IMG/VR virus record: IMGVR_UViG_3300035169_000087
Coordinates: 1 to 64,000 of that record
Source: a virus
DNA length: 64,000 nt
Reading direction: 5' to 3' (one strand)
The notes under the pieces were generated by a model, which had not been told where the DNA came from, did not search any database, and saw only the letters and a program-made list of their open reading frames with translations. Position numbers and translations under genes: made by a program. Below are positions 5,446-54,870 of the stretch, one piece after another (position 1 is the first letter of the stretch; each line of letters starts with the position of its first letter).

Positions 5446-8400
5446 ATGGCGATCACCACCATCCCGCCCACCTTCTACCAGGTCGCGTTCAACGCCGACC
5501 CCAACCAGGCCGTCATCCCCCCGTACTGGACCGACCAGTCCTGGCGCGTCCAGTTCCCCTGGTCCTCCGCGCGGGGACGGCAATACGAACTCGACGCCGT
5601 GGAAACCGGCGAATGGCGCCCCACCCTCGCCAACCCCGACGGCGCCCTGGACCCCTCAAACACGACCTCGCCGTACGCGCCGAACGTGCTGCCGTTCCGC
5701 CAAGCCCGCATCCAGTGCAAACCCGGCCCCAACCAGCTGACCCCAGACCAGGCCACCGCGGGAGAGGCGACCGGCTACCCGGCCGGGATCACCGCACCCG
5801 CACAGATGGCGGTCTCCAACGACTTCGGGTACACCGTCACACTCGCCGCCAGCGGCACCGCCTACCAAGGCAACCAGGTCTACCAGGTCACCGTGCCCGG
5901 CGGTGCGACACAGTTCACCACGATCCTGCTGATCAAACCCGTGCCGGTGACACCGCTAGTCACCTACAGCTTCAGCGCGCAGGTGCGCATCAACTCCGGC
6001 ACGTCCGCACCCACGAACGCGACGATCCTGTGGTACGACACCACCGGCGCGAACATCTCCTCAATCGGTGGCGCCGCGGTCACACCCACGTCCGGCTCCT
6101 CGACGTGGAACCAGATCAGCGTCTCGGGCGCAGCACCAAGCGCCGCGTACAGCGCAGTCCTGAAAATCGAGATCGCCTCCGGCGGATCCACTTCCGCCAG
6201 CACCGTGTGGCAGGCCGACGGGCTGCAACTGGAACAGAACCCCTTCGCGACCCCGTTCCAGATCCCCAACATCCTGTCCGCGAACCTGTTCCCGGGGAAC
6301 CTCGCGACCGGCGGCTACGACACTCAGGGCGCAGCCGGCTGGTGGTATCCCACTGTCGGCGCCGTCTCCTACGTCACCGGGCTCACGGCCGCGCCGACCG
6401 GGCACACCAACGCGTTCGCGTGGACCAGCCCGGCAAGCACGACCAGCGCGTCCCCGATGCTGACCGGCCCGGCGGCGTCCGGCCCCGTCGCGGACATCGT
6501 GCAGGTCGCCGGGAGCACCGCGTACAGCGCCTCGTTCTACGCGCTGCGCGCCGCCTCCGCCGACGCCACCCTCGCCGTCACGGCCACGATCACCTGGTAC
6601 GGCGCTGCGGCCACGTCACTGGGCACCAGCGTCGGCTCGCCGCTCACCCTCGCCACCGGCACCTGGGGGCGGCTCACAGTCTCGGGCACGAGCCCCGCCG
6701 GGGCACTGTGGGGCCGCGTGTCGCTCGCCGTCACCACCCCGGCGTCCACGACCGCGTCCAACACCGTGTACCTGACGGCGGGACAGTTCGAGGCCGCCGC
6801 GTCCCCGAGTTCGTGGCGCGACACCGGGCCCACGTACTCGATCATCACGCCGTTCGTTGAGCGCTGGCCGCAAACGTGGTCGGAGCAGGACGGCACCTAC
6901 GGCACGAGCAGTGTGATCGGCGACGACGCGCTCGTGGCCCTCTCGCAGTACACGCTGACCGCCCCGTTCATCGAAGAAGTCAACGCGTTAAACCCGAACT
7001 TCTTCTATCCCCTGTCCGATCCGCAGGGGTCCACCAGTTGCGCGGACGCTTCCGGCAGGCGGGTCGCCGCTCCGGTGGAGAACTCGCCGTTCGGCGCGGG
7101 TTCGCTCGTGTTCGGCGGCTCGATCACCTCGGTCACCGCGGGTTCGGCGTTCATCGGCAGCAGCGGTCCCGTCGCGACATTCGCCAACGACGCCACGCAG
7201 AACCCGCCGACGCAGGTGCAGCGCGCCGAGACGTTCGTGTCCATCCACAAGACCACGAGCAGCCCGGGGCTCCCGAACACCGGGGCGTGGACCAGGATCA
7301 TCGCTTTCCGCGCCGCCGCAGCGCCCGGCACCAACAAGGGCTACACCCTGTGGGACGCCGAACCCGCATCGTGGACAACCAACGCGTCCCTCGCCTCGTT
7401 CGCGATCAACAGCCTCGGCCAGGCGAACATCCAATGGTCCAACACCCTGGGCAACAGCGCGTGGGACTACACCGGCACGACGAACCTGTGCGACGGCAAC
7501 TGGCACCTGCTGGCCATGGGCAACGACCCGGCCGCCACCGGCACCGTGATCTGGGTCGACGGGGCGGTCGTGTCCACCAGCCCCGGGTCCACCGGGCTGC
7601 CGTCCGGGTTCGTCACCGACGCGCTGGGCTGCTCGATCAGCGCCGGCCGCCAGTACTACGACGCCGGGCACATCGGCGATTTGGCGTTCGCCGCCGAATT
7701 CCCCGCGCTGCTCACCAGCGCACAGATGAGCAACCTGTACAACTCCTGGCGCACCGCGAGCCAGGGCGAGTCCACCGGTGCCCGCATCCAGCGCATCCTC
7801 ACCTCCTGGATCGGCTGGACCGGCGCGACCGCACTGGACGCCGGCCAAACCACGAGCATGGGCCCAGCGACCGACCTCACCGGCGCGACCGCACTGGACG
7901 CGTGCAACAACGTCACGCTCACCGAGAGCGGCAACTTCTACGCCGCCGCGAACGGCACACTCACCTTCAAATCCCGCACCGCCCGCTACGGCCAACTGGT
8001 ACCGGCGTACATCTTCGGCGAGAAGACCGCGGTCGGCGAGTGGCCGTTCGAAAACCCGTTCCAGTTCGACGATGATTCCAGTCACATCGCGAACAACGTG
8101 CAGGTCACACAGTACGGCGGTTCGGTGTACACGGCGCTGGGCGCCACGTCGAGCGGCCGTTATTTCCCGCGCGTCTACCAGCGCACGATCAACACGACGA
8201 GCGCGGCCGAATGCCAGGATGCCGCGGCCTATCTGCTCTCGCAGTACAAGGACGCGCACATGCGCGTCTCGGCGCTGCGCCTGCACCCCAGCGCGGTCCC
8301 GGGCCTGTTCCAGGTGTGCCTGGCTTTGGAGCTCGGGACGCGGATCCGGGTGAACCGGCGCCCGAACGGCGCCCCGCAGATCACGTGGGACGGGTTCGTC

Positions 8401-46699: not shown

Positions 46700-48299
46700 T
46701 CAAGGCAGTAGTCCTTCGCGTTGCATGGCCTGCTCAAGTTGCCGGCGGATCCCCGGGTCCAGGTCGGGCGGCAGCTCCCCGTACAACAGGACATGCCCGG
46801 CGACGCGGCTGATCTCGTCGGCGACGAGCCGTTGTACCGGGTTGAGTTTCGCCCGTTCCCGTTCGACCGCCGTACTCACGGCCGCGAACACACCCGGCTC
46901 AGTCATGCGCTTTCCCGGTGAGTAGTTCCCGTGCCCTGGCGATCAGCGCGCCGCCAGCGTCGTTGGGGTGTGCGGCGAGCCACCGGTCGAGTAGCGCGAC
47001 CGCTCCCGGCCTGGTGCTGCGTACGTCGCTGGTTTCGCCGCTGTGCGTCTCGATGGAGGTGTCGCGTACGAGCGTGAGCCGGTCGTCCGGGGCCATGGGT
47101 AGGCGCAGCGTGACCTCGACCGTGGGTTTCGGCAGCGCCTCGATCCGGGTGGGCAGCGACATGCCGGGCGTGTGATCAACGGGTAGTCCGCGCTGAATCG
47201 AGCAGCCGACCAGTTCCCCGAACAGGTCCGATTCCTGCCCGTCCACGGTCAGCAGGCCACGGCCGCCGACCAGAGACACCACGAAGTCAGGCACCGGTTG
47301 CCTCCCGGATCGCGGTGTACGTGCCACACGGCCACGCGACGGGCACCGTGTCATCCAGGTCGCTCTCGCAGCACTCCGAGCACACGACCCGCGTATCGCC
47401 CTCTACCGGCAGGTGAACGCCCAGCGCGGCCAGCGCGGCGGTATTGCCCTCCAGGGAGGCGCAGGTCGCGTTGTAGTCGGCGGCGGCTTCCTCGTAGGCT
47501 GCGGCGATCTCGCGGCGTCGTTGCGCCCGCTGCTGGCGCTGGTTGAGTTCGTGCGCGGACCGCTCGGCCGGGCTGAGGCCGACGCTCAGCGGGCCCGCGT
47601 ACTTCGCTTGGCGGGCGATCTCTGCGGCGAGGTTGCGTAGCGGCGCGGCCAGGTCGTACGCCTGGATGCCGGTCGGTACCGGCGTGGGCTCGGTCACGGC
47701 GCGTCCAGGACGTATCCGACGCGGATCACAGCCCAGCACTCGCGCTCGGACCACGCGGTGAGCAGTGCGTGCATGTCGGCCGAGCCGCGCCGGGTGGTGC
47801 GGTTTTCGCCGCCGACGTAGGCGCCGTGCTCGCCGAACCAGCGCACCGACACCGGGACGGTATCGGCAGCGCCGTGTTCAGCGACCGCTGCGGCCGTGGA
47901 CTCGTCCCATACGGCCTGGCATACGGTGCAGCGCCGGGCCAGCCACTCGGGCGGGTACGCGATCGGGCCGATGCCACCGTAGGGGCTGGCCGTGCGGCGC
48001 GTGTACTTGGTTTCCACGGCCTTCGACCCGCATTTGCGGCACGTCGCGTGCTCCCCGGAGTAGGGCGGTAGCGTGACGGGTTTCGGGATGCCGGGGGTCG
48101 CGCAGCAGTCGTTGATCTGTTCGTCGATGCCGTACGCCGGCATGTCGGCGGGCGCGTAGCCGGGTCTCTTGCAGCACACGGTTTTGCCGCGGTACGCGTA
48201 GCCGTCTGGTGCGGGTCCGTAGCGGTGGGTCCAGGTGCCGTCGCCGGTGCGTTCGAAGATGACCGGCTCAAGTGCGGCGTCAGGCGTTTCGTTCGGCAC
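46700..48299 (-). CDS. Four leftward hypothetical ORFs (46700-46906, 46899-47294, 47287-47697, 47694-48299)
   Basis: Overlapping stop/start coupling; CxxC and WPC.T motifs. Confidence 0.5.
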
Positions 48300-48384
48300 G
48301 CGCCTAGTGTGCCTCGCCGGGCGGTGTTTCGTTGCGCGGAATCCGGATCGACGCAACGGATCGTAGGTGGCGATCGTCAAACGA

Positions 48385-48414
48385 TTCGCCCGCGACACCC
48401 GGCAGCGCTACGGT
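48385..48414 (+). promoter_or_regulatory. Putative housekeeping-sigma promoter of the Y RNA-Ro60 unit
   Basis: TTCGCC-N18-TACGGT; the -10 ends 7 nt before the first RNA stem. Confidence 0.45.
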
Positions 48415-48421
48415 AGGGCTC

Positions 48422-48493
48422 GCCCCGGTGCGCACGGTACGGGTTACTTCTTTCATGCAGAAACAACACCCGCACCGGACCTGATCTCGGGGC
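48422..48493 (+). ncRNA. Y-RNA-like RNA 1 (short, no T or D arm)
   Basis: Terminal stem GCCCCG/CGGGGC, shared GGTGCG...GATCTC element, TACTTC motif, apical hairpin. Confidence 0.7.
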
Positions 48494-48520: not shown

Positions 48521-48655
48521 CCGTCAGGTGCGCAGGAGAGGGCTACTTCACTCTGTAAAAGTGGCAGTCCGGGTTCGAGTCCCGGCAGGCCCGTAACAGG
48601 GCCCGTAGTGTAACGGCAGCACGCTCGTCGCCTTCCCCGACTCGATCTCTGGCGG
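48521..48655 (+). ncRNA. Y-RNA-like RNA 2 with permuted tRNA domain retaining a GUA anticodon arm
   Basis: Stem CCGTCAG/CTGGCGG; TCACT-CTGTAAA-AGTGG; T arm CCGGG-TTCGAGT-CCCGG; looped acceptor stem; D arm TAGTGTAACGGCAGCAC. Confidence 0.8.
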
Positions 48656-48673
48656 CACTCGCAGTGGACAGCA

Positions 48674-48796
48674 CCTCCCGGTGCGTAGGCGACGCGTACT
48701 TCTCGCTAGGGATATCGGTTCGAATCCGAGAGCCGCTTCGGCGGCGACGGCGTGACGGTAACCGCCATTTCGCGTAGCCGCCCTGATCTCGGGAGG
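48674..48796 (+). ncRNA. Y-RNA-like RNA 3 (YrlA-like, degenerate tRNA domain)
   Basis: Stem CCTCCCG/CGGGAGG; T arm TCGG-TTCGAAT-CCGA; GCCGC-TTCG-GCGGC; GGCG-TGACGGTAAC-CGCC. Confidence 0.75.
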
Positions 48797-48808: not shown

Positions 48809-48951
48809 GGTCGCGCCCGGTGCGACGGAGACGGGTCCTTCTTAGGGTTGCTGGTTCGAATCCAGTCGAGTCGCTTAGGCGGCTCGTAGCGCAATCTGGT
48901 AGCGCATAAGAGCAGTTCAATCCCGCCACCATTCCGATCTCGGGCGCGACC
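48809..48951 (+). ncRNA. Y-RNA-like RNA 4 (YrlA topology)
   Basis: 11-bp stem GGTCGCGCCCG/CGGGCGCGACC; T arm GCTGG-TTCGAAT-CCAGT; acceptor CGAGTCG/CGGCTCG closed by a loop; D arm TAGCGCAATCTGGTAGCGCA; TCTTA/TAAGA anticodon-stem equivalent. Confidence 0.85.
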
Positions 48952-48988
48952 ACCTTTCCCGCTCCTCCCCTTCCCGTGGGAGTCGAGC

Positions 48989-51841
48989 ATGGCCCGTTTC
49001 AACACCCCGACCGCGAAGCCCGCGGTCCACTCGCCGATCATGGGCGAGCGCACCGCGTCCGGGCGCACCTTCGAAGGCGGCGCAGGCTACGCGCGGGACG
49101 CCAAGTCGGAACTCTTCCTGCTCGCCGTCTCGAACTTCGTGTCCACCGACACGTTCTACGAGAAGGCCGACGACCGCGACGAGCGGTTCGAACGCCTCGT
49201 GCACCAGGTCGCGGTCGAGGACCCGGACTGGATGGGCCGGTTCATCCCGTGGCTGCGCAGCGAGGCCAACATGCGCACCGCGTCCCTCGTCGCGGCCGCC
49301 GAGTCCGTCAAGGCACGACTGGACGCCTACGACGCTTCTCTCGCCGGGAACGAGCAGCCTGCGGACGCGCTCAAGAAGCCGGTCAACCGCGCACTGATCA
49401 ACGCTGCGTGCCAGCGGCCCGACGAACCCGGTGAACTACTCGCCTACTGGACATCCCGCCACGGACGCGCCCTGCCCAAGCCCGTCAAGCGAGGCATCGC
49501 CGACGCCGTGCGACGCCTCTACAACGGCAAGTCGCTGATCAAATACGACACCGCGTCGCACGGCTACCGGTTCGGCGACGTCCTCAACCTCGTACACGCC
49601 GACCCCGAACCGGACAAGCCGTGGCAGGGCGAGCTTTTCAAGTACGCCCTGGACCGGCGCCACCACCCGGCTGAGGCGGTCGTACCGGAATCGAACCGCA
49701 CGCTCACCGCGAACAGTGCGCTGCTCGCGCTGCCCGTCGACCAGCGGCGCGCGTTCCTGCGCGGCCCCGACGCCGCGGCGCGCCTCACCGAGGCCGGGTT
49801 CACGTGGGAGATGCTGGCCGGGTGGCTGCAGGGCCCGATGGACGCCGAGGCGTGGGAGGCCGTGATCCCGTCGATGGGGTACATGGCGTGCCTCGCCGAG
49901 GGAACCCCGGTCTGGCTGGCCGATGGCACCACCGCACCGATCGAGGACGTGGTGGCCCGCAAGCTGCCAGTGCTCTCCTACGACAAAGCATGGGACAGCC
50001 GGCCGGTCAAATACGGTCCCAACCAGGGGCCACGTGACCAGTCGGTGGGCAACCTCGTGCCTACGATCCCGTCTGCGTGGCTCGACACCGGCGTGCGCCC
50101 CATTGCGGCCGTGCGGTTCGCCTCGGGCCGCGTCATTGAGGCCACCTACGATCACCGGTGGGTACGCCAACGTCGAAGCGGCCGCCAGGCGTGGGAATGG
50201 AACACGACTAGTGAGCTGCGGGTCGGCGACCGCATCCCGGTCCCTCTGACCGCCGATACGTTCGGCGATGAGGGAGACGCCTGGGATGGCTACTTTGTTG
50301 GGGGCATGCTCGGCGACGGTGGCATGACAGTGCTGACCCCGGAGTTTCATGGCGACCCGAACAACGGCGCTGTGGCGTTCATGCGCGAATACGCAGCCAA
50401 ACACGGCTGCGACGTTCGCGAGGACACGAACGGTGCGATCGTGCGCATGCGATTCCCGTTCAAACAGTGGAAGCGGAATCCGCTGGCGGAGATCCTTCGC
50501 CGGTACGAGGTCTGGGGAAAGCGTTGCGAGGCCAAAGCACTGCCCAACCGGCCCTTCAGCCGGGAGTTCTGGATCGGCGCGCTATCCGGTCTGATCGATA
50601 CTGACGGCTGCGTCCGGGAGCGCACCAACGCCAAGGGCACCCTGCACGGCTCGGTCGAGTATGCCACCGTGTCCCGACGGCTCGCCGAGCAAGTGTCCGA
50701 TGTGCTGCTGCGTCTCGGGGTAACCAACATCATCCGCGAGAGGGCGCCACTCAGCCGGCCCGACGCAGCCATCCAGAGCCGCCACACCCTCTTCGTCGTG
50801 GAAACGAACCGGGCGACGGCGCTGGTTCGTCTCGCCGAACTCCTCGACCTGCGGATCAGCTACAAAGCCGCGCGGCTCGCTAGCCTGGCGGAGCGCTTGG
50901 CGCATGTAGCTCCGGCTTCGAGCGAGATGCACGGATACGACAAGGCCGTGGCTCTGGATCGCGTGGTAGCGATCGAGGACGCCGGAGAGCGCGCGACATA
51001 TTGCGTCACGGTCGACGCCTCGAACTTGTTTGTGGCTAATGGCATTGTGACGGGCAATTGCCTGCGCAACCTGAGGAATTTCGACGAGACCGGCGTCCCG
51101 GACGATGTCGCCGAGCAGGTCATCGCGAAGCTCAAGGATCCGGCCGAGGTCGCCCGCTCGCGACAGTTGCCGTTCCGGTTCCTCTCGGCGTACCGGGCGG
51201 CTCCGTCGCTGCGCTGGTCGTATCCGCTGGAGGTCGCGATCGGCCGCTCCCTGGGCAACGTGCCGGCGCTGTCGGGCCGCACGCTGATCCTCGTGGACAC
51301 CTCGGGTTCGATGAACGCGGGGTTCAGTAAGGACGGGACGCTGATGCGGTGGGACGCTGCGGCGCTGTTCGGGATCGCACTGGGGCATCGTTGCGCTGCG
51401 GCGGACGTGGTGTCGTTCTCCTCGCTTCAGTACTACTACGGGCAGCCGGGTGGCGCGAACGTGAAGGCGTTCCCGCTGAGCAAGGGCGAGTCGGTGCTGC
51501 GGTCGCTGGAGCGGTGGCGTGGCGGCGGCTGGTTCCTGGGCGGGGGTACGGAGACTGCGGCGGCGTTGCGGGCGACGTTCCAGGGCCATGACCGTGTGGT
51601 GGTGTTGACGGACGAGCAGGCGGCGCATGACGGGGTGGAGGTGACGCGGAGCGTGCCGGAGTCGGTGCCGATGTACACGTGGAACCTGGCGGGTTACGCG
51701 CGGGGGCATGCGCCGTCGGGTGGGCGGAATCGGCATGCGTTTGGGGGGCTGACGGATCAGGCGTTCAAGATGATTCCGTTGCTTGAGGGCGGCCGGGACG
51801 GTTCCTGGCCGTGGGATGCGGAGACGGTGCCCGCGCGGTAG
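48989..51841 (+). CDS. Ro60/Rsr TROVE plus vWA RNA-binding protein with intein (950-aa precursor, ~560 aa spliced)
   Basis: TFEGGAGY.RD.KSELFLL, WLR.EANMRT, QRPDEPGE.LAYW, PKPVKRG.AD, MGYMA|CLRNLRNF, SRQLPFRFLSAY, MIDAS LVDTSGSM, LTDEQ. Confidence 0.92.
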   Translation: MARFNTPTAKPAVHSPIMGERTASGRTFEGGAGYARDAKSELFLLAVSNFVSTDTFYEKADDRDERFERLVHQVAVEDPDWMGRFIPWLRSEANMRTASLVAAAESVKARLDAYDASLAGNEQPADALKKPVNRALINAACQRPDEPGELLAYWTSRHGRALPKPVKRGIADAVRRLYNGKSLIKYDTASHGYRFGDVLNLVHADPEPDKPWQGELFKYALDRRHHPAEAVVPESNRTLTANSALLALPVDQRRAFLRGPDAAARLTEAGFTWEMLAGWLQGPMDAEAWEAVIPSMGYMACLAEGTPVWLADGTTAPIEDVVARKLPVLSYDKAWDSRPVKYGPNQGPRDQSVGNLVPTIPSAWLDTGVRPIAAVRFASGRVIEATYDHRWVRQRRSGRQAWEWNTTSELRVGDRIPVPLTADTFGDEGDAWDGYFVGGMLGDGGMTVLTPEFHGDPNNGAVAFMREYAAKHGCDVREDTNGAIVRMRFPFKQWKRNPLAEILRRYEVWGKRCEAKALPNRPFSREFWIGALSGLIDTDGCVRERTNAKGTLHGSVEYATVSRRLAEQVSDVLLRLGVTNIIRERAPLSRPDAAIQSRHTLFVVETNRATALVRLAELLDLRISYKAARLASLAERLAHVAPASSEMHGYDKAVALDRVVAIEDAGERATYCVTVDASNLFVANGIVTGNCLRNLRNFDETGVPDDVAEQVIAKLKDPAEVARSRQLPFRFLSAYRAAPSLRWSYPLEVAIGRSLGNVPALSGRTLILVDTSGSMNAGFSKDGTLMRWDAAALFGIALGHRCAAADVVSFSSLQYYYGQPGGANVKAFPLSKGESVLRSLERWRGGGWFLGGGTETAAALRATFQGHDRVVVLTDEQAAHDGVEVTRSVPESVPMYTWNLAGYARGHAPSGGRNRHAFGGLTDQAFKMIPLLEGGRDGSWPWDAETVPAR
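49889..51058 (+). mobile_element. Intein (390 aa) with LAGLIDADG homing endonuclease
   Basis: Block A CLAEGT.V.LADG, block B ATYDHRW, GGMLGDG and SGLIDTDG, block F TYCVTV...NLFVANGIV, terminal TGN followed by Cys+1. Confidence 0.92.
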
Positions 51842-51848
51842 AACCAGT

Positions 51849-51881
51849 GGCCCCGTGCTCGACGGAACCAGGCGCGGGGCC
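51849..51881. terminator. Stem-loop between the Ro60 gene and the convergent leftward operon
   Basis: GGCCCCGTGC...GCGCGGGGCC. Confidence 0.6.
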
Positions 51882-53264
51882 TACGGGCAGTCGCAGTGCC
51901 CGCAGTGGTGGTGCACGCTCGGCGGGGGCGGTGTCACCTGCTGCGTGGTGAGGACCGGCGGCCGGACGGTGCCGCGCGGGGACTTCTGCCCGAGGCCGGG
52001 CCGGGTGAGCACGTCCGGAAGCGGGCCCATAGCGGACACGGGCACGTTAGCCGCCATGTATCTGCGTCGCTGCTTGCCTTGCGCCTGCCGGAGTTCGGCC
52101 CTGTGGCGGGCGGTGTTCTCGACGATCCCGAGTTCCAGTTCCAGGGCGCGGATGCGGGCCCAGGTGCGCCGATACCTGCGGTATCGGATCAGGCGCACCA
52201 GTAGACGCGCTAGCCAGGTCACAGCACCCACTTCTCGTCCCAGCCTTGGCGTCCCGCGTACGGGGCGGCGAGCAGGCGCGCTGTGAGGCACGGCGCCCAC
52301 AGGTCACCGTTGAAGTCCGGGTCGCTCTGGCGGTCCTGGCAGAAGTAGCGCCGTGTCCCGTCGTCGAGTTCCGCGTAGGAGGTCATGTGCAGGCCCAGGA
52401 TCGCCCGCTTCGTCTCGACCTCAGCGAGCACGTGGGCCGGATCCCAGCGCGCGATGTGGACGCCGACAGTCTCGTCAATGTCCTCGATCCCGGTTGCGAC
52501 TACACCGCCGGACGCCCCCACCGAACCGCGAAAGAGGGTCCACTGCGGATCTGGTGTGCCGTCCGTGGTGCCCGCAGCCAGCGCGGACTGCATCGCGATC
52601 TGCTCGTCTCCGGCGAGGCATTTCTCGAGGAACGCGGTGATCGCGGCAACGTCAGTCACGCTCGACCTCCACGCCGAGTTCCTTCGCGATGGCGCGCACC
52701 GTCGGGCACGGGTAGTCGCGCGCCAAGAACTCGTCCGTTCCGTCGCTGCATTCGTCGCAGATCGGCTTGCCCTCCAATGTGCCCTCCACGGCGATACGCG
52801 GCTTGTGCAATTCGAGGACCGCGTGCAGGCTCCCGGCTATCACGGACGCCCAGCGCGCGAACTCGGCGAGCTTGCCGTCACCGATCATGTTCGCGCGGGA
52901 GCGCCACCCGATGGTCGCGCCCATGAACCGCTGGACCTCGGCGCGCAACGCTTCCACATCCAGGTCAGGCATTCGTCTCCAGTCCGAGCTGTTTCGCGAT
53001 GGCCTCGACGGTCTCGCAGGGGTAACCGGTCGGGTTGCAGATCTCTGGCCCGATGTCCATGCAGACGGAGCAGTCCTTGACGTGCGGCTTGCTCCCGATG
53101 CCTGCCCAGCGGGGCTTGTGCAGGTCGAGGGCGGCGGTCAGCGCGCCGCGCATCTTGATCGCCTCCGAGTGCCCCTCGACGGGGCAGTCGTCGCGCCACC
53201 GGCCGCAGATGTCATCGAGCCAGCCGTCCAGCCGCTCCCGGATCGCCGCGTCGAGGTCAGTCAC
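51881..53264 (-). CDS. Four leftward ORFs (51881-52222; 52219-52659 DUF6221-like; 52652-52972; 52965-53264)
   Basis: HIARWDP..VLAEVE.KR.IL..H...PC.T.RLLA.PY in the second; LH.P...CxxC...YPC.TV.AIA in the last two. Confidence 0.6.
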
Positions 53265-53696
53265 GGCGCAAGAGCCAGTCGGCGAGTCGCGGCAGGCGCA
53301 GGGCGTCGGCAATCGCCCAGAACAGGGCCGACGCGGCGTCGCGGTATCGCTGGGCGTCCTCGGCCAGGGTCCCGGGTGGTGGCCTGTCAGGCATCGTTGT
53401 CGCCTTCGTCGAGATGTTGCGGATCGTGTGCACGGTCCCGTCCGCGCCGACCATGGCAAGGTGCCGGGTGGCATTCGTTCGTCAACGACGACTTGCGGCA
53501 GAGGCTGCTCGGTCACCGTGTCCTCCTGGCGTACCAGCGCCTTACCCGCGCGATGCCGGGCTCGATCAGCAGTGCGGCGGCGAGCGAGTTGCACCAGGCT
53601 TCCCAGCCGGTGTGCCCGTGCCAGCGTGCGAGGTCCCCGACGGCCACGAGCGCGAGGATCAGGGTAGGGCGCGCCCACCAGGCGCGACGTAGACGG

Positions 53697-54870
53697 TCAA
53701 GCACCGTCGCCACGCTCCGGTTTGAGCGGCCCGAACCGGTCCGCGACCTCCTGCAGATCCAGCAGCCACAGGCCGTGCACGTCGTCGCTGACGTTCTCAA
53801 ACACCGGGGTGAGCCGGTTCGGGCGCCAGCCGTGCATCTGCCACCGGTCGCCGTCCGACCCGACGAGGATCTTGCCCAGCGGGTAGGTCACACCGAAGCG
53901 GCCGGTCCACTGGGTCGGCACAGACTGGGTTTTGAGTTCGGCGACGAGCTGGTCGGCTTCGTTGAGTAGCCGGATGATGTCGTTCACGACGAGGGCGAAG
54001 GATTCGCTGTGCTTGGCGACGGCGTGCCGGGTTCGGCCTAGGCGTTCGCTCAGGTCGTTGAGGACTTCAGTCACGCGTAGCCCCGGATCTGCGGCGGCGC
54101 GTCCCCGCCACGGGAACGGCGCACGGCTTCCCGGACCCCGTCGAGGCCGCGCAGCGGGGCAGGTGCCGCGAAGTCCCCGATGCCGGTGTGGATCTCGTGC
54201 GTTGGCGGCTTGCGGCACACGCACTGTTCCGGGTTGGCGTAGGCGCGTGCGGCGATGTGCGGGTGGCGGTGGGATTGCTCGCTCCAGCCGCACAGGCAGT
54301 TGCCCGCGCCGGACCCTGGGTCGGCCTGGTAGGGGTGGACGCGCGGCATGTCGGGGTAGCCCATGCGCCCAGTATCGCTGCTCACGTCTGCTGGTCGGTG
54401 CCGGTTTGCGCCCTGGGCGTGAGCGCCCGCTCGCGCAGGTGCTCGGGCAGGGTCGCGGCGGCCCGGAGGATCGCCTCAGAGACCTGGCTCGGGTCTCCCT
54501 GACCGTGCCAGCCGTGCTCGCCCTCGAGGTACCGGTGCGGCGGCCGCCACGCTTCGACACGGTCGGGGAGCATCCGCAGCCAGCCGTATCGACCTTCGCC
54601 GGTGGTGTGCGCGCCGTGCGGGCCTGGCTCCTGGACGGCGGCGAGCCATACGCACAGCCCGGCCCAGTCGCGGCTGTTCGGGATGGGCGCCCAGGCGAGG
54701 ACGATCACTTCGGTGAAGCCGCGCAGTTTCGGGTTCGGGTGGTCGACGAAGTGGACGCGCACGACTTGCGCGCCCCGCACGAGGATCAACTCCGGCGGCG
54801 GGTCGGCGAGCGCAGGCAACGGCGGCTCGTCCAGCCACTGGTCCGGATCGCCCGCTGCTGCCTCACTCAC
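53697..54870 (-). CDS. Three leftward hypothetical ORFs (53697-54074; 54071-54364 Cys/His-rich; 54382-54870)
   Basis: Coupled starts; GATACT-N6-ATG before 54364. Confidence 0.5.

Follow-up and report, generated by a model that had tools for sequence, protein, structure and literature searches.

An anticodon-arm-like hairpin in a YrlA-class Y RNA encoded upstream of a phage rsr gene

The closest described relatives of the RNA considered here, unit 2 of a viral Y RNA array, are the YrlA RNAs (Rfam family RF02553) of Salmonella Typhimurium and Mycobacterium smegmatis. Like unit 2, they are encoded just upstream of rsr and on the same strand. Their ends form an Rsr-binding stem, which is putative in unit 2, and both have T and D arms, a closed acceptor-like hairpin, a YUAY motif and Levitt covariation; in M. 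smegmatis YrlA, as in unit 2, the acceptor stem has seven positions. A further, less conserved stem-loop of YrlA, named 'V', was equated with the variable arm of tRNA, the conserved YUAY standing at the start of its loop (Chen et al. 2014, PMC4201824), and a structure preprint presents YrlA without an anticodon loop (10.1101/312249). RNase P cuts M. smegmatis YrlA, with its 7-bp acceptor stem, in vitro; in vivo, the RNA occurs as two halves, and CA is added to the 5' half, giving CCA (PMC4201824). YrlA has been proposed to be a competitive inhibitor of an anticodon nuclease (Hughes et al. 2020, PMC7790460), and a dimeric-tRNA origin model for its modules is cited in bioRxiv 10.1101/312249. In comparison with published YrlA, the hairpin of unit 2 exhibits the full architecture of an anticodon arm and is separate from the closing stem, with a five-way instead of a four-way junction. 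The group of unit 2 also exhibits the 5' motif GGUGCG(C/U/A)AG and not GNCGAAN0-1G, with Rfam scores under the gathering cut-off. Yrn1 of Deinococcus radiodurans has, like unit 2, a potential 'anticodon arm' with a 5-bp stem. Unlike unit 2, it has a 6-nt loop, neither a full D arm nor a V arm, and differently oriented T and D arms, and it was judged to have evolved independently (Chen et al. 2014, PMC4201824).

Viral tRNA-like structures such as the TYMV TLS resemble unit 2 in being virus-encoded tRNA mimics that include a mimic of the anticodon domain. They are located at the 3' end of an RNA genome, have a free CCA and are aminoacylated, whereas unit 2 is a small RNA in its own right, encoded by a DNA phage and linked to Ro60, and its acceptor is closed in the DNA sequence. 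Permuted or split relatives comprise the permuted tRNA genes of Cyanidioschyzon merolae, the split tRNAs of Nanoarchaeum and the two-piece tmRNA, which give translation RNAs by bulge-helix-bulge cleavage and ligation, or carry an mRNA-like part. As in unit 2, permuted tRNA genes encode the 3' part of the fold upstream of the 5' part. In contrast, the break in unit 2 lies at the D/anticodon junction and is filled by the conserved, putative Rsr-binding stem. The two-chain tRNA-like molecule of two-piece tmRNA would be matched if RNase P cuts the acceptor loop of unit 2. Taking all the evidence below into account, we consider it probable that unit 2 is a YrlA-class Y RNA which acts as an Rsr-tethered mimic of a full tRNA, likely as a decoy for proteins that read the anticodon loop.

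The rsr locus and the anatomy of unit 2

The window analysed is a stretch of 64,000 nt from a 99-kb, high-GC viral record assembled from soil. The plus-strand open reading frame at 48989-51841 encodes 950 amino acids with the Pfam domains TROVE, Intein_splicing and LAGLIDADG_3, and corresponds to an rsr (Ro60/TROVE) gene interrupted by a LAGLIDADG intein. Its exteins are 40-66% identical to Ro-like proteins adjoining homologous Y RNA arrays. The intein, of ~390 amino acids, contains a LAGLIDADG homing endonuclease (49886-51055; CLAEGT...VTGN, followed by C), and the Ro genes of the phage relatives compared are uninterrupted, with about 520-550 amino acids. The 570 nt upstream of rsr contain four tandem Y-RNA-like units on the plus strand, all with GGUGCG near the 5' end, a (U/C)(A/C)CUUC motif and GAUCUC(G/U)GG near the 3' end. 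Unit 1 (48422-48493) is a simple Y-RNA-like unit without T and D arms, which has the scaffold GGUGCG...UACUUC...GAUCUCGGG in common with the others. Unit 2 (about 48521-48657) carries the anticodon-like hairpin, and ends 332 nt before the start of rsr on the same strand, YrlA RNAs being expected within about 4 kb of rsr and on its strand. For comparison with homologues, a covariance model, R1, was built from 31 other units, the window being left out. Unit 3 (48674-48796) is a degenerate tRNA-like Y RNA without the hairpin, scoring 26.6 bits with R1 with most hairpin positions deleted. Unit 4 (48809-48951) is a canonical YrlA-type RNA, scoring 39.7 bits with the Rfam YrlA model and 43.5 bits with R1, the hairpin being deleted in the latter alignment. 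In unit 4, the 5' strand pairs with the strand that follows the D arm to give the anticodon-like stem UCUUA/UAAGA, with five of five pairs and canonical spacing. This agrees with the proposal of the earlier note on this DNA that unit 4 has no anticodon loop and that its stem leads into the Ro-binding stem, which the Rfam and R1 alignments and the pairing check bear out.

With regard to the surroundings of the array, no match was obtained by blastn against 50,697 phage records. The ten neighbouring ORFs gave no informative function with Pfam and PHROGs and did not reveal any RNA ligase, nuclease or CCA enzyme. A promoter scan found nothing, and the terminator-like sites that it gave are unconvincing. 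CUCCC at 48965-48969 can pair with the rsr Shine-Dalgarno sequence GGGAG at 48978-48982, 6 nt before the ATG, and the CUCC...GGGAG arrangement is also present in the loci L029 and L064. In the more distant loci L086, L049, L112 and L047, the interval from the last Y RNA to rsr instead contains a terminator-like hairpin, CCCCUC...GAGGGG, followed by a U-run. Third-position GC content assigns the ORFs on either side of the Y RNA/rsr block (47287-48398 and 51881-54870) to the minus strand, so the block looks like a separately oriented insert in a region of minus-strand genes.

[quoted passage not shown] The GGUGCG of this strand, at 48527-48532, is invariant in 32 aligned units, and the strand covaries with the 3' strand. 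In the minimum free energy (MFE) fold, the segment 48535-48546 comprises the 5' strand of the closing stem (48535-48543, pairing with 48630-48637) and the YUAY motif, CUAC, at 48543-48546; the closing-stem pairs exhibit compensatory changes in 10-12 sequences each in the 32-unit alignment. The anticodon-stem-loop mimic is located at 48548-48564. Its stem, UCACU/AGUGG (48548-48552/48560-48564), has four Watson-Crick pairs and one U.G pair, and its loop, CUGUAAA (48553-48559), displays the triplet GUA at 48555-48557. It is followed by a variable loop of class-I type, CAGU (48565-48568), in which U48568 is placed for a Levitt pair with A15 of the D loop, and by a T arm of 5 bp (48569-48585; CCGGG/UUCGAGU/CCCGG), which is paired in 100% of the cells and covaries in the 32 units. 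The closed acceptor-like hairpin (48586-48605) consists of the acceptor 3' strand CAGGCCC (48586-48592), the linker GUAACA (48593-48598) and the 5' strand GGGCCCG (48599-48605). Six of its seven positions are paired, the exception being a mismatch between A48587 and C48604, and the six inner pairs covary. The equivalents of U8 and A9, UA at 48606-48607, precede the D arm (48608-48622; GUGU/AACGGCA/GCAC, with the GG present), both being assigned by reading, Rfam alignment and covariation (48606-48622); this type of D arm is also found in a real phage tRNA-Glu. The remainder (48623-48657) comprises a linker (48623-48629), the 3' strand of the closing stem (48630-48637) and the 3' strand of the Rsr-binding stem, with the conserved GAUCUC at 48644-48649.

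The earlier note had described a complete, circularly permuted tRNA at 48548-48622. On reading the sequence, each element was found where the note had placed it, including six of seven acceptor pairs, and all four tRNA arms are present, with the break between the D arm and the anticodon arm. The MFE fold draws the closing stem around a multi-branch junction and contains the hairpin as well as the T arm and the acceptor hairpin. For the single sequence, the folding z is -1.1 for the hairpin, -1.1 for the whole domain and -3.2 for the acceptor hairpin. Apart from the acceptor hairpin, which stands out, these energies are ordinary for the composition, so the unit 2 sequence by itself proves little.

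At gathering thresholds, Rfam reported nothing in the window. With permissive settings, the YrlA model (RF02553, cut-off 69) aligned to unit 2 from T arm to D arm only, with 20.9 bits, and to unit 4 over its full length; the tRNA model (RF00005, cut-off 29) gave 20.3 bits on 48540-48593, and this only with the D arm skipped. ARAGORN found 0 tRNA genes in the window, and RF00005 found no tRNA over the whole 99-kb record. R1 matched 48534-48639 with 69.4 bits (E 1.5e-18) over its full length, model positions 1-109, with the hairpin aligned. Unit 2 is a member of the YrlA class: it exhibits T and D stem-loops with the tRNA-invariant bases, 15:48 covariation, the closed acceptor-like hairpin and YUAY. 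The stem at the RNA ends covaries in its family, and the 5' motif is the variant GGUGCGCAG, as compared with the classical GNCGAAN0-1G. Its relatives exhibit GGUGCGAAG at this place, and some units of the order holding the Rhodococcus genome exhibit GUCGAAG or GCCGAAUG.

Recurrence of the hairpin in homologous units

A protein search with the N-extein retrieved Ro-like genes of 40-49% identity from Streptomyces, Gordonia and Arthrobacter phages and from two viral contigs, and the scaffold pattern GGTGCG...TACTTC...GGTTCRA retrieved 117 viral and 120 genomic loci. Most loci with such units have an adjoining Rsr homologue, the identity reaching 66%, and 77% in one bacterial genome. These units repeatedly exhibit, from UACUUC to the T arm, a 5-bp stem and a 7-nt loop of the form (C/A/U)U-NNN-(A/G)A, and units beside rsr in Streptomyces, Kitasatospora, Rhodococcus and other genomes have the same hairpin. 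The different triplets number more than 15 and include GUU, GCU, GGA, UGG, CAU, CUU, GUC, GCC, ACC and ACG, as well as CUG, UGU, CGC, CCA, GAU, CCU, UCU, CGA and UCA.

For a census, we used 55 distinct units with the motif and 14-21 nt before the T stem, pairing being ignored in the selection. In 31 of them, 3-6 nt separate the T stem from a perfect 5-bp/7-nt hairpin, as compared with 2.6 +/- 1.6 (maximum 8) in 500 shuffled controls. Loops of 5, 6, 8 and 9 nt were observed in 4, 1, 3 and 4 cases, respectively; about 40% of the set is without a perfect hairpin, and some loops have 6 or 8 nt. This counting was anchored on the T arm because plain MAFFT alignment gapped the loop and mixed registers; together with the shuffles and the covariance model, it was used for the hairpin region. 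The rows of the 32-unit alignment had been chosen for paired hairpins, which makes its figure of 94% paired for the hairpin circular. RNAalifold did not draw the hairpin itself on these 32 units, because U.G pairs abound in the stem and the row of the window is one column off. Covariation was observed in the 32 full units for each of the terminal, closing, T, acceptor and D helices.

Within 27 distinct hairpins, U33 is present in 25, C32 in 22, a purine at position 37 in 26 and A38 in 24, and positions 34-36, the triplet, are nearly random, with an entropy of 1.7-2.0 bits. Position 37 is coupled to position 36: G36 is followed by G37 in 6/6 cases and the other bases by A37 in 19/21. Three Streptomyces-type units exhibit C at position 37. 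The two loop-proximal stem pairs of the 27 hairpins occur as four pair types each, and pairs 30:40 and 31:39 exhibit compensatory double changes in 11 and 10 sequences, respectively, of the 32-unit alignment. Near relatives in independent soil metagenomes, including an 86%-identical contig, have the hairpin unchanged; one relative contig differs at 17/120 positions, none of them in the hairpin, and has a compensatory G48589>U and C48602>A change in the acceptor.

A sample independent of the pattern was obtained from the Rfam YrlA matches in 141 genomes of the order holding the Rhodococcus genome. All of these matches are below the RF02553 cut-off, which indicates that this model is poorly tuned to the actinobacterial branch. 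About half of the genuine units exhibit loops like CU-ACG-GA, CU-GUG-AA, CU-CGA-AA, CU-GAU-AA and CU-UCA-GA, and the hairpin-bearing units include some with the classical GNCGAA motif.

The earlier note had proposed to check whether homologues keep U33 and a purine at position 37 in a 7-nt loop while the triplet varies. The outcome is positive: the homologues exhibit a 7-nt (C/A/U)U-NNN-(A/G)A loop with a variable triplet. At the level of sequence comparison, the homologues confirm that the hairpin at 48548-48564 is more than chance.

Hairpins with anticodon-like loops are also observed directly after UACUUC in simple units without T and D arms: UUCU/UUCAUGC/AGAA in unit 1 of the window (48444-48470), UUCAU/CUGCUAA/AUGAA in unit 1 of L039 (~6480-6500), and UCAAA/CUGCUA(A/G)/UUUGA in L019 (~3307) and L020 (~2696, minus-strand count). 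An actinobacterial YrlA-type unit, L259 (~1520-1550, minus-strand count), has the loop CU-UCA-GA, and UCA would read the UGA stop codon. L257 exhibits an 8-nt loop variant beside its 7-nt relative L258.

ARAGORN and GenBank annotation call such hairpin units tRNA genes, ARAGORN doing so for 19 units in the loci examined. In three phages, a tRNA annotated in GenBank immediately before the Ro-like gene overlaps the 5' part of a YrlA-type Y RNA. These are tRNA-Arg(tct) of Gordonia phage VanLee (L006:1204-1275; R1 match L006:1216-1323, 103 bits), tRNA-Ser(gct) of Streptomyces phage LuckySocke (L004:1274-1347; R1 match L004:1289-1387, 47 bits) and tRNA-Arg(cct) of Streptomyces phage GiJojo (L003:1269-1343; R1 match L003:1277-1395, 45 bits). 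In VanLee, the only 'tRNA' annotated in the 3.9-kb stretch around the Ro gene is a spurious call of this type.

Triplet, position and origin of the hairpin

The earlier note had assigned a Tyr (GUA) identity to the hairpin, which the comparison does not uphold. The syntenic orthologue in L029, with an Rsr 65% identical and nearly identical flanks, has the stem UCCAA/UUGGG, an 8-nt loop, CUUGCUGA, and an acceptor hairpin of 6 bp, and the triplet of the family varies as freely as unconstrained loop sites. ARAGORN reports 'tRNA-??? (tgct)', with a four-base anticodon, at L029:262-331. Eleven units, mostly of Streptomyces type, form a clade in which the stems hardly differ and the triplets are CAU, CCU, CCA, GUC, GAU, CUU and GUU. 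In this clade, the triplet reaches a diversity of 0.56, as high as that of unconstrained loop sites, as compared with 0.14 for the loop frame, 0.07 for the stem and 0.14 for the remainder of the RNA. The T and D arms do not change with the triplet, and units with the Ser triplets GCU and GGA have no long variable arm, which indicates that these are not isoacceptor-specific tRNA bodies. 'Tyr' therefore probably carries no specific meaning. The Y RNAs might be Rsr-tethered 'programmable' tRNA baits, in which the fast-changing triplet selects the anticodon nuclease, toxin or modification enzyme. We put this forward tentatively and regard it as unlikely. A free triplet fits a lack of constraint as well as diversifying selection, so that an anticodon-specific function is at most possible. 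If the bait reading were true, triplet turnover among close relatives in phages and in Streptomyces chromosomes would be the trace of a tRNA-cleavage arms race.

Another possibility is that YrlA arose from tandem tRNA genes and that the anticodon arm of the upstream tRNA persists as the hairpin, decaying and now functionless. In related phages rsr sits within tRNA gene arrays, the Rfam YrlA model also matches junctions of real tandem tRNAs, 7/32 acceptor loops begin with N-CCA, the D arm of unit 2 has its counterpart in a phage tRNA-Glu, and the G36-G37 coupling looks copied from real tRNAs. However, a decaying relic should lose its frame and stem as fast as its triplet, and the clade diversity of 0.56 at the triplet, as compared with 0.14 and 0.07 in frame and stem, counts against this. 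Moreover, the stems change via compensatory substitutions, and the 5' strand of the stem is built from the conserved UACUUC of the family and is not copied from any tRNA stem. A functionless remnant is, in our view, quite improbable. Recent copying from real tRNA loops as the sole cause of the triplet match was rejected, the 5' strand of the stem being the family's own UACUUC. The weak Rfam YrlA matches L245 and L260-L263, in actinobacterial genomes, are tandem tRNA junctions composed of a T arm, a spacer and the next D arm; such matches are a source of false positives, and they also fit the tandem-tRNA origin model.

With regard to the identity of the hairpin, the earlier note had stated that described YrlA RNAs are without it. 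This has to be corrected, as the hairpin is drawn as the 'V' stem-loop in PMC4201824; the element itself is therefore known, and what is new is its anticodon-arm identity only. In the literature searched, no statement was found that reads 'V' as an anticodon-arm mimic. The published reading would make the hairpin merely a long variable arm, with the closing stem playing the anticodon stem and the likeness of the loop incidental. The topology of the secondary structure is indeed the same, the hairpin lying between the 5' strand of the closing stem and the T arm, and the MFE fold can extend the hairpin of unit 2 into the CAGU segment. However, the hairpin is followed by an ordinary variable loop of 4-5 nt and class-I type (AGGUC and similar), the position 48 of which covaries, the Levitt pair 15:48 being A:U in 8/32 and G:C in 23/32 units. 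Where the hairpin is absent, as in unit 4, the strand of 5 nt that leads into a 5-nt variable loop pairs with another strand of 5 nt, which starts exactly one base after the D stem. This pairing is perfect in 10 of the 12 analysable units of this kind, with differing sequences, and has the geometry of tRNA 27-31/39-43. The 3' strand of the hairpin thus sits at tRNA positions 39-43, which identifies the hairpin as an anticodon arm rather than a variable arm; where the hairpin is present, this strand is paired in cis, with the 7-nt loop as the cap, the whole being equivalent to tRNA 27-43. Furthermore, the D stem lies 4-7 nt from the closing stem in all 32 hairpin-bearing units, according to the extended closing stem of RNAalifold, instead of 1 nt. 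Judging from this spacing only, the hairpin may stack under the D stem. Class II variable arms are not known to have anything but loops of 3-5 nt without an anticodon-like frame. The hairpin, in contrast, exhibits a strong preference for a 7-nt loop with the U33/R37/A38 frame, and it has neither the short loop of such an arm nor an anticodon stem formed by its flanking strands next to the D stem. We consequently regard a mere variable arm as very unlikely, and retain the reading as an anticodon-arm mimic.

As regards the fate of the RNA, the earlier note had also envisaged its maturation into a tRNA-Tyr in the way of permuted tRNA genes. In this case, unit 2 would be the precursor of a functional tRNA-Tyr, two-piece or re-ligated, which would be opened by RNase P, receive CCA, be charged and decode UAY. 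All the parts of a tRNA are present, in the order of a permuted gene (anticodon arm, V, T, acceptor 3' strand, linker, acceptor 5' strand, D arm). Moreover, CCA is encoded in some homologues and there is no ordinary tRNA gene in the 99-kb phage record. Seryl-tRNA synthetase needs a long variable arm, and the discriminator of bacterial tRNA-Tyr is A73. The T/D body is, however, constant across triplets, bodies with GCU or GGA are without a long variable arm, the discriminator of unit 2 is a G, and the orthologue in L029 has a loop of 8 nt. As compared with a tRNA-Tyr gene, the D arm is 3' of the T arm and there is no continuous cloverleaf, and the tRNA models score under threshold. The D and anticodon arms are joined solely via the Rsr stem. 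Inspection of the folds revealed no bulge-helix-bulge at the precursor ends and no 3-nt/4-bp/3-nt motif; the junction adjoins a long stem that is conserved, and it has 0-1 nt at the 5' side of this stem and 4-7 nt at the 3' side. Such a precursor is therefore extremely improbable, the proposed maturation finding no support in view of the constant body and the absence of a visible bulge-helix-bulge, and unit 2 is in all likelihood not a gene for a decoding tRNA-Tyr.

The opposite statement of the earlier note, that the RNA cannot be charged since its acceptor is closed, is unsafe in view of the M. smegmatis YrlA precedent (PMC4201824) and of the N-CCA in 7/32 homologues. In the family, the acceptor has seven positions, comprising six covarying pairs and a seventh that is paired in 76% of the units, and the N-CCA comes immediately behind the acceptor 3' strand. 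In unit 2, a G followed by UAACA stands at this place, so any CCA would need to be added. Finally, that the CUGUAAA loop is a coincidence has next to no probability: a fit to YU-NNN-RN is expected for about 1 in 16 loops of 7 nt and the single-sequence z is only -1.1, but the hairpin recurs across the family far above shuffles and is aligned in the 69-bit match to R1.

Proposed role of unit 2

Based on these observations, the decoy reading of unit 2 can be outlined as follows. Unit 2 would be one of four YrlA-class Y RNAs made from the array upstream of the phage rsr. Its ends would pair into the Rsr-binding stem, with GGUGCG facing GAUCUC, and its effector end would be a five-way junction of the closing stem, the anticodon-stem-loop mimic, the T arm, the closed acceptor hairpin and the D arm. 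In this arrangement, a complete tRNA would be mimicked, circularly permuted at position 26, with the Rsr handle attached there. In the actinobacterial/actinophage branch, the features kept are the 5 bp, the 7-nt loop, C32, U33, purine 37 and A38, along with G37 next to G36, and the three central bases are left free.

Bound by Rsr, unit 2 would offer a look-alike of the full tRNA to a protein which recognises the anticodon loop by its shape. Phages and hosts alike have a conserved anticodon-loop frame on a scaffold of this Rsr-tethered kind, as would fit a bait or decoy for such readers. Most plausibly, unit 2 would serve during infection as a competitive decoy or bait for nucleases of the anticodon loop or for enzymes that modify tRNA. 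As in the case of M. smegmatis YrlA, its acceptor hairpin may be opened by RNase P and receive CCA.

Judging by their sequences, dozens of related phage and actinobacterial Y RNAs appear to share the overlooked anticodon hairpin. This explains the spurious tRNA calls beside Ro genes in deposited phage genomes, and the branch that carries the hairpin lends concrete sequence support to the tandem-tRNA origin model. [quoted passage not shown] A conserved mimic of the anticodon arm on a constant scaffold narrows the search for this partner to proteins that read the anticodon loop, and the natural variants that differ in the triplet alone make the idea that YrlA inhibits an anticodon nuclease directly testable.
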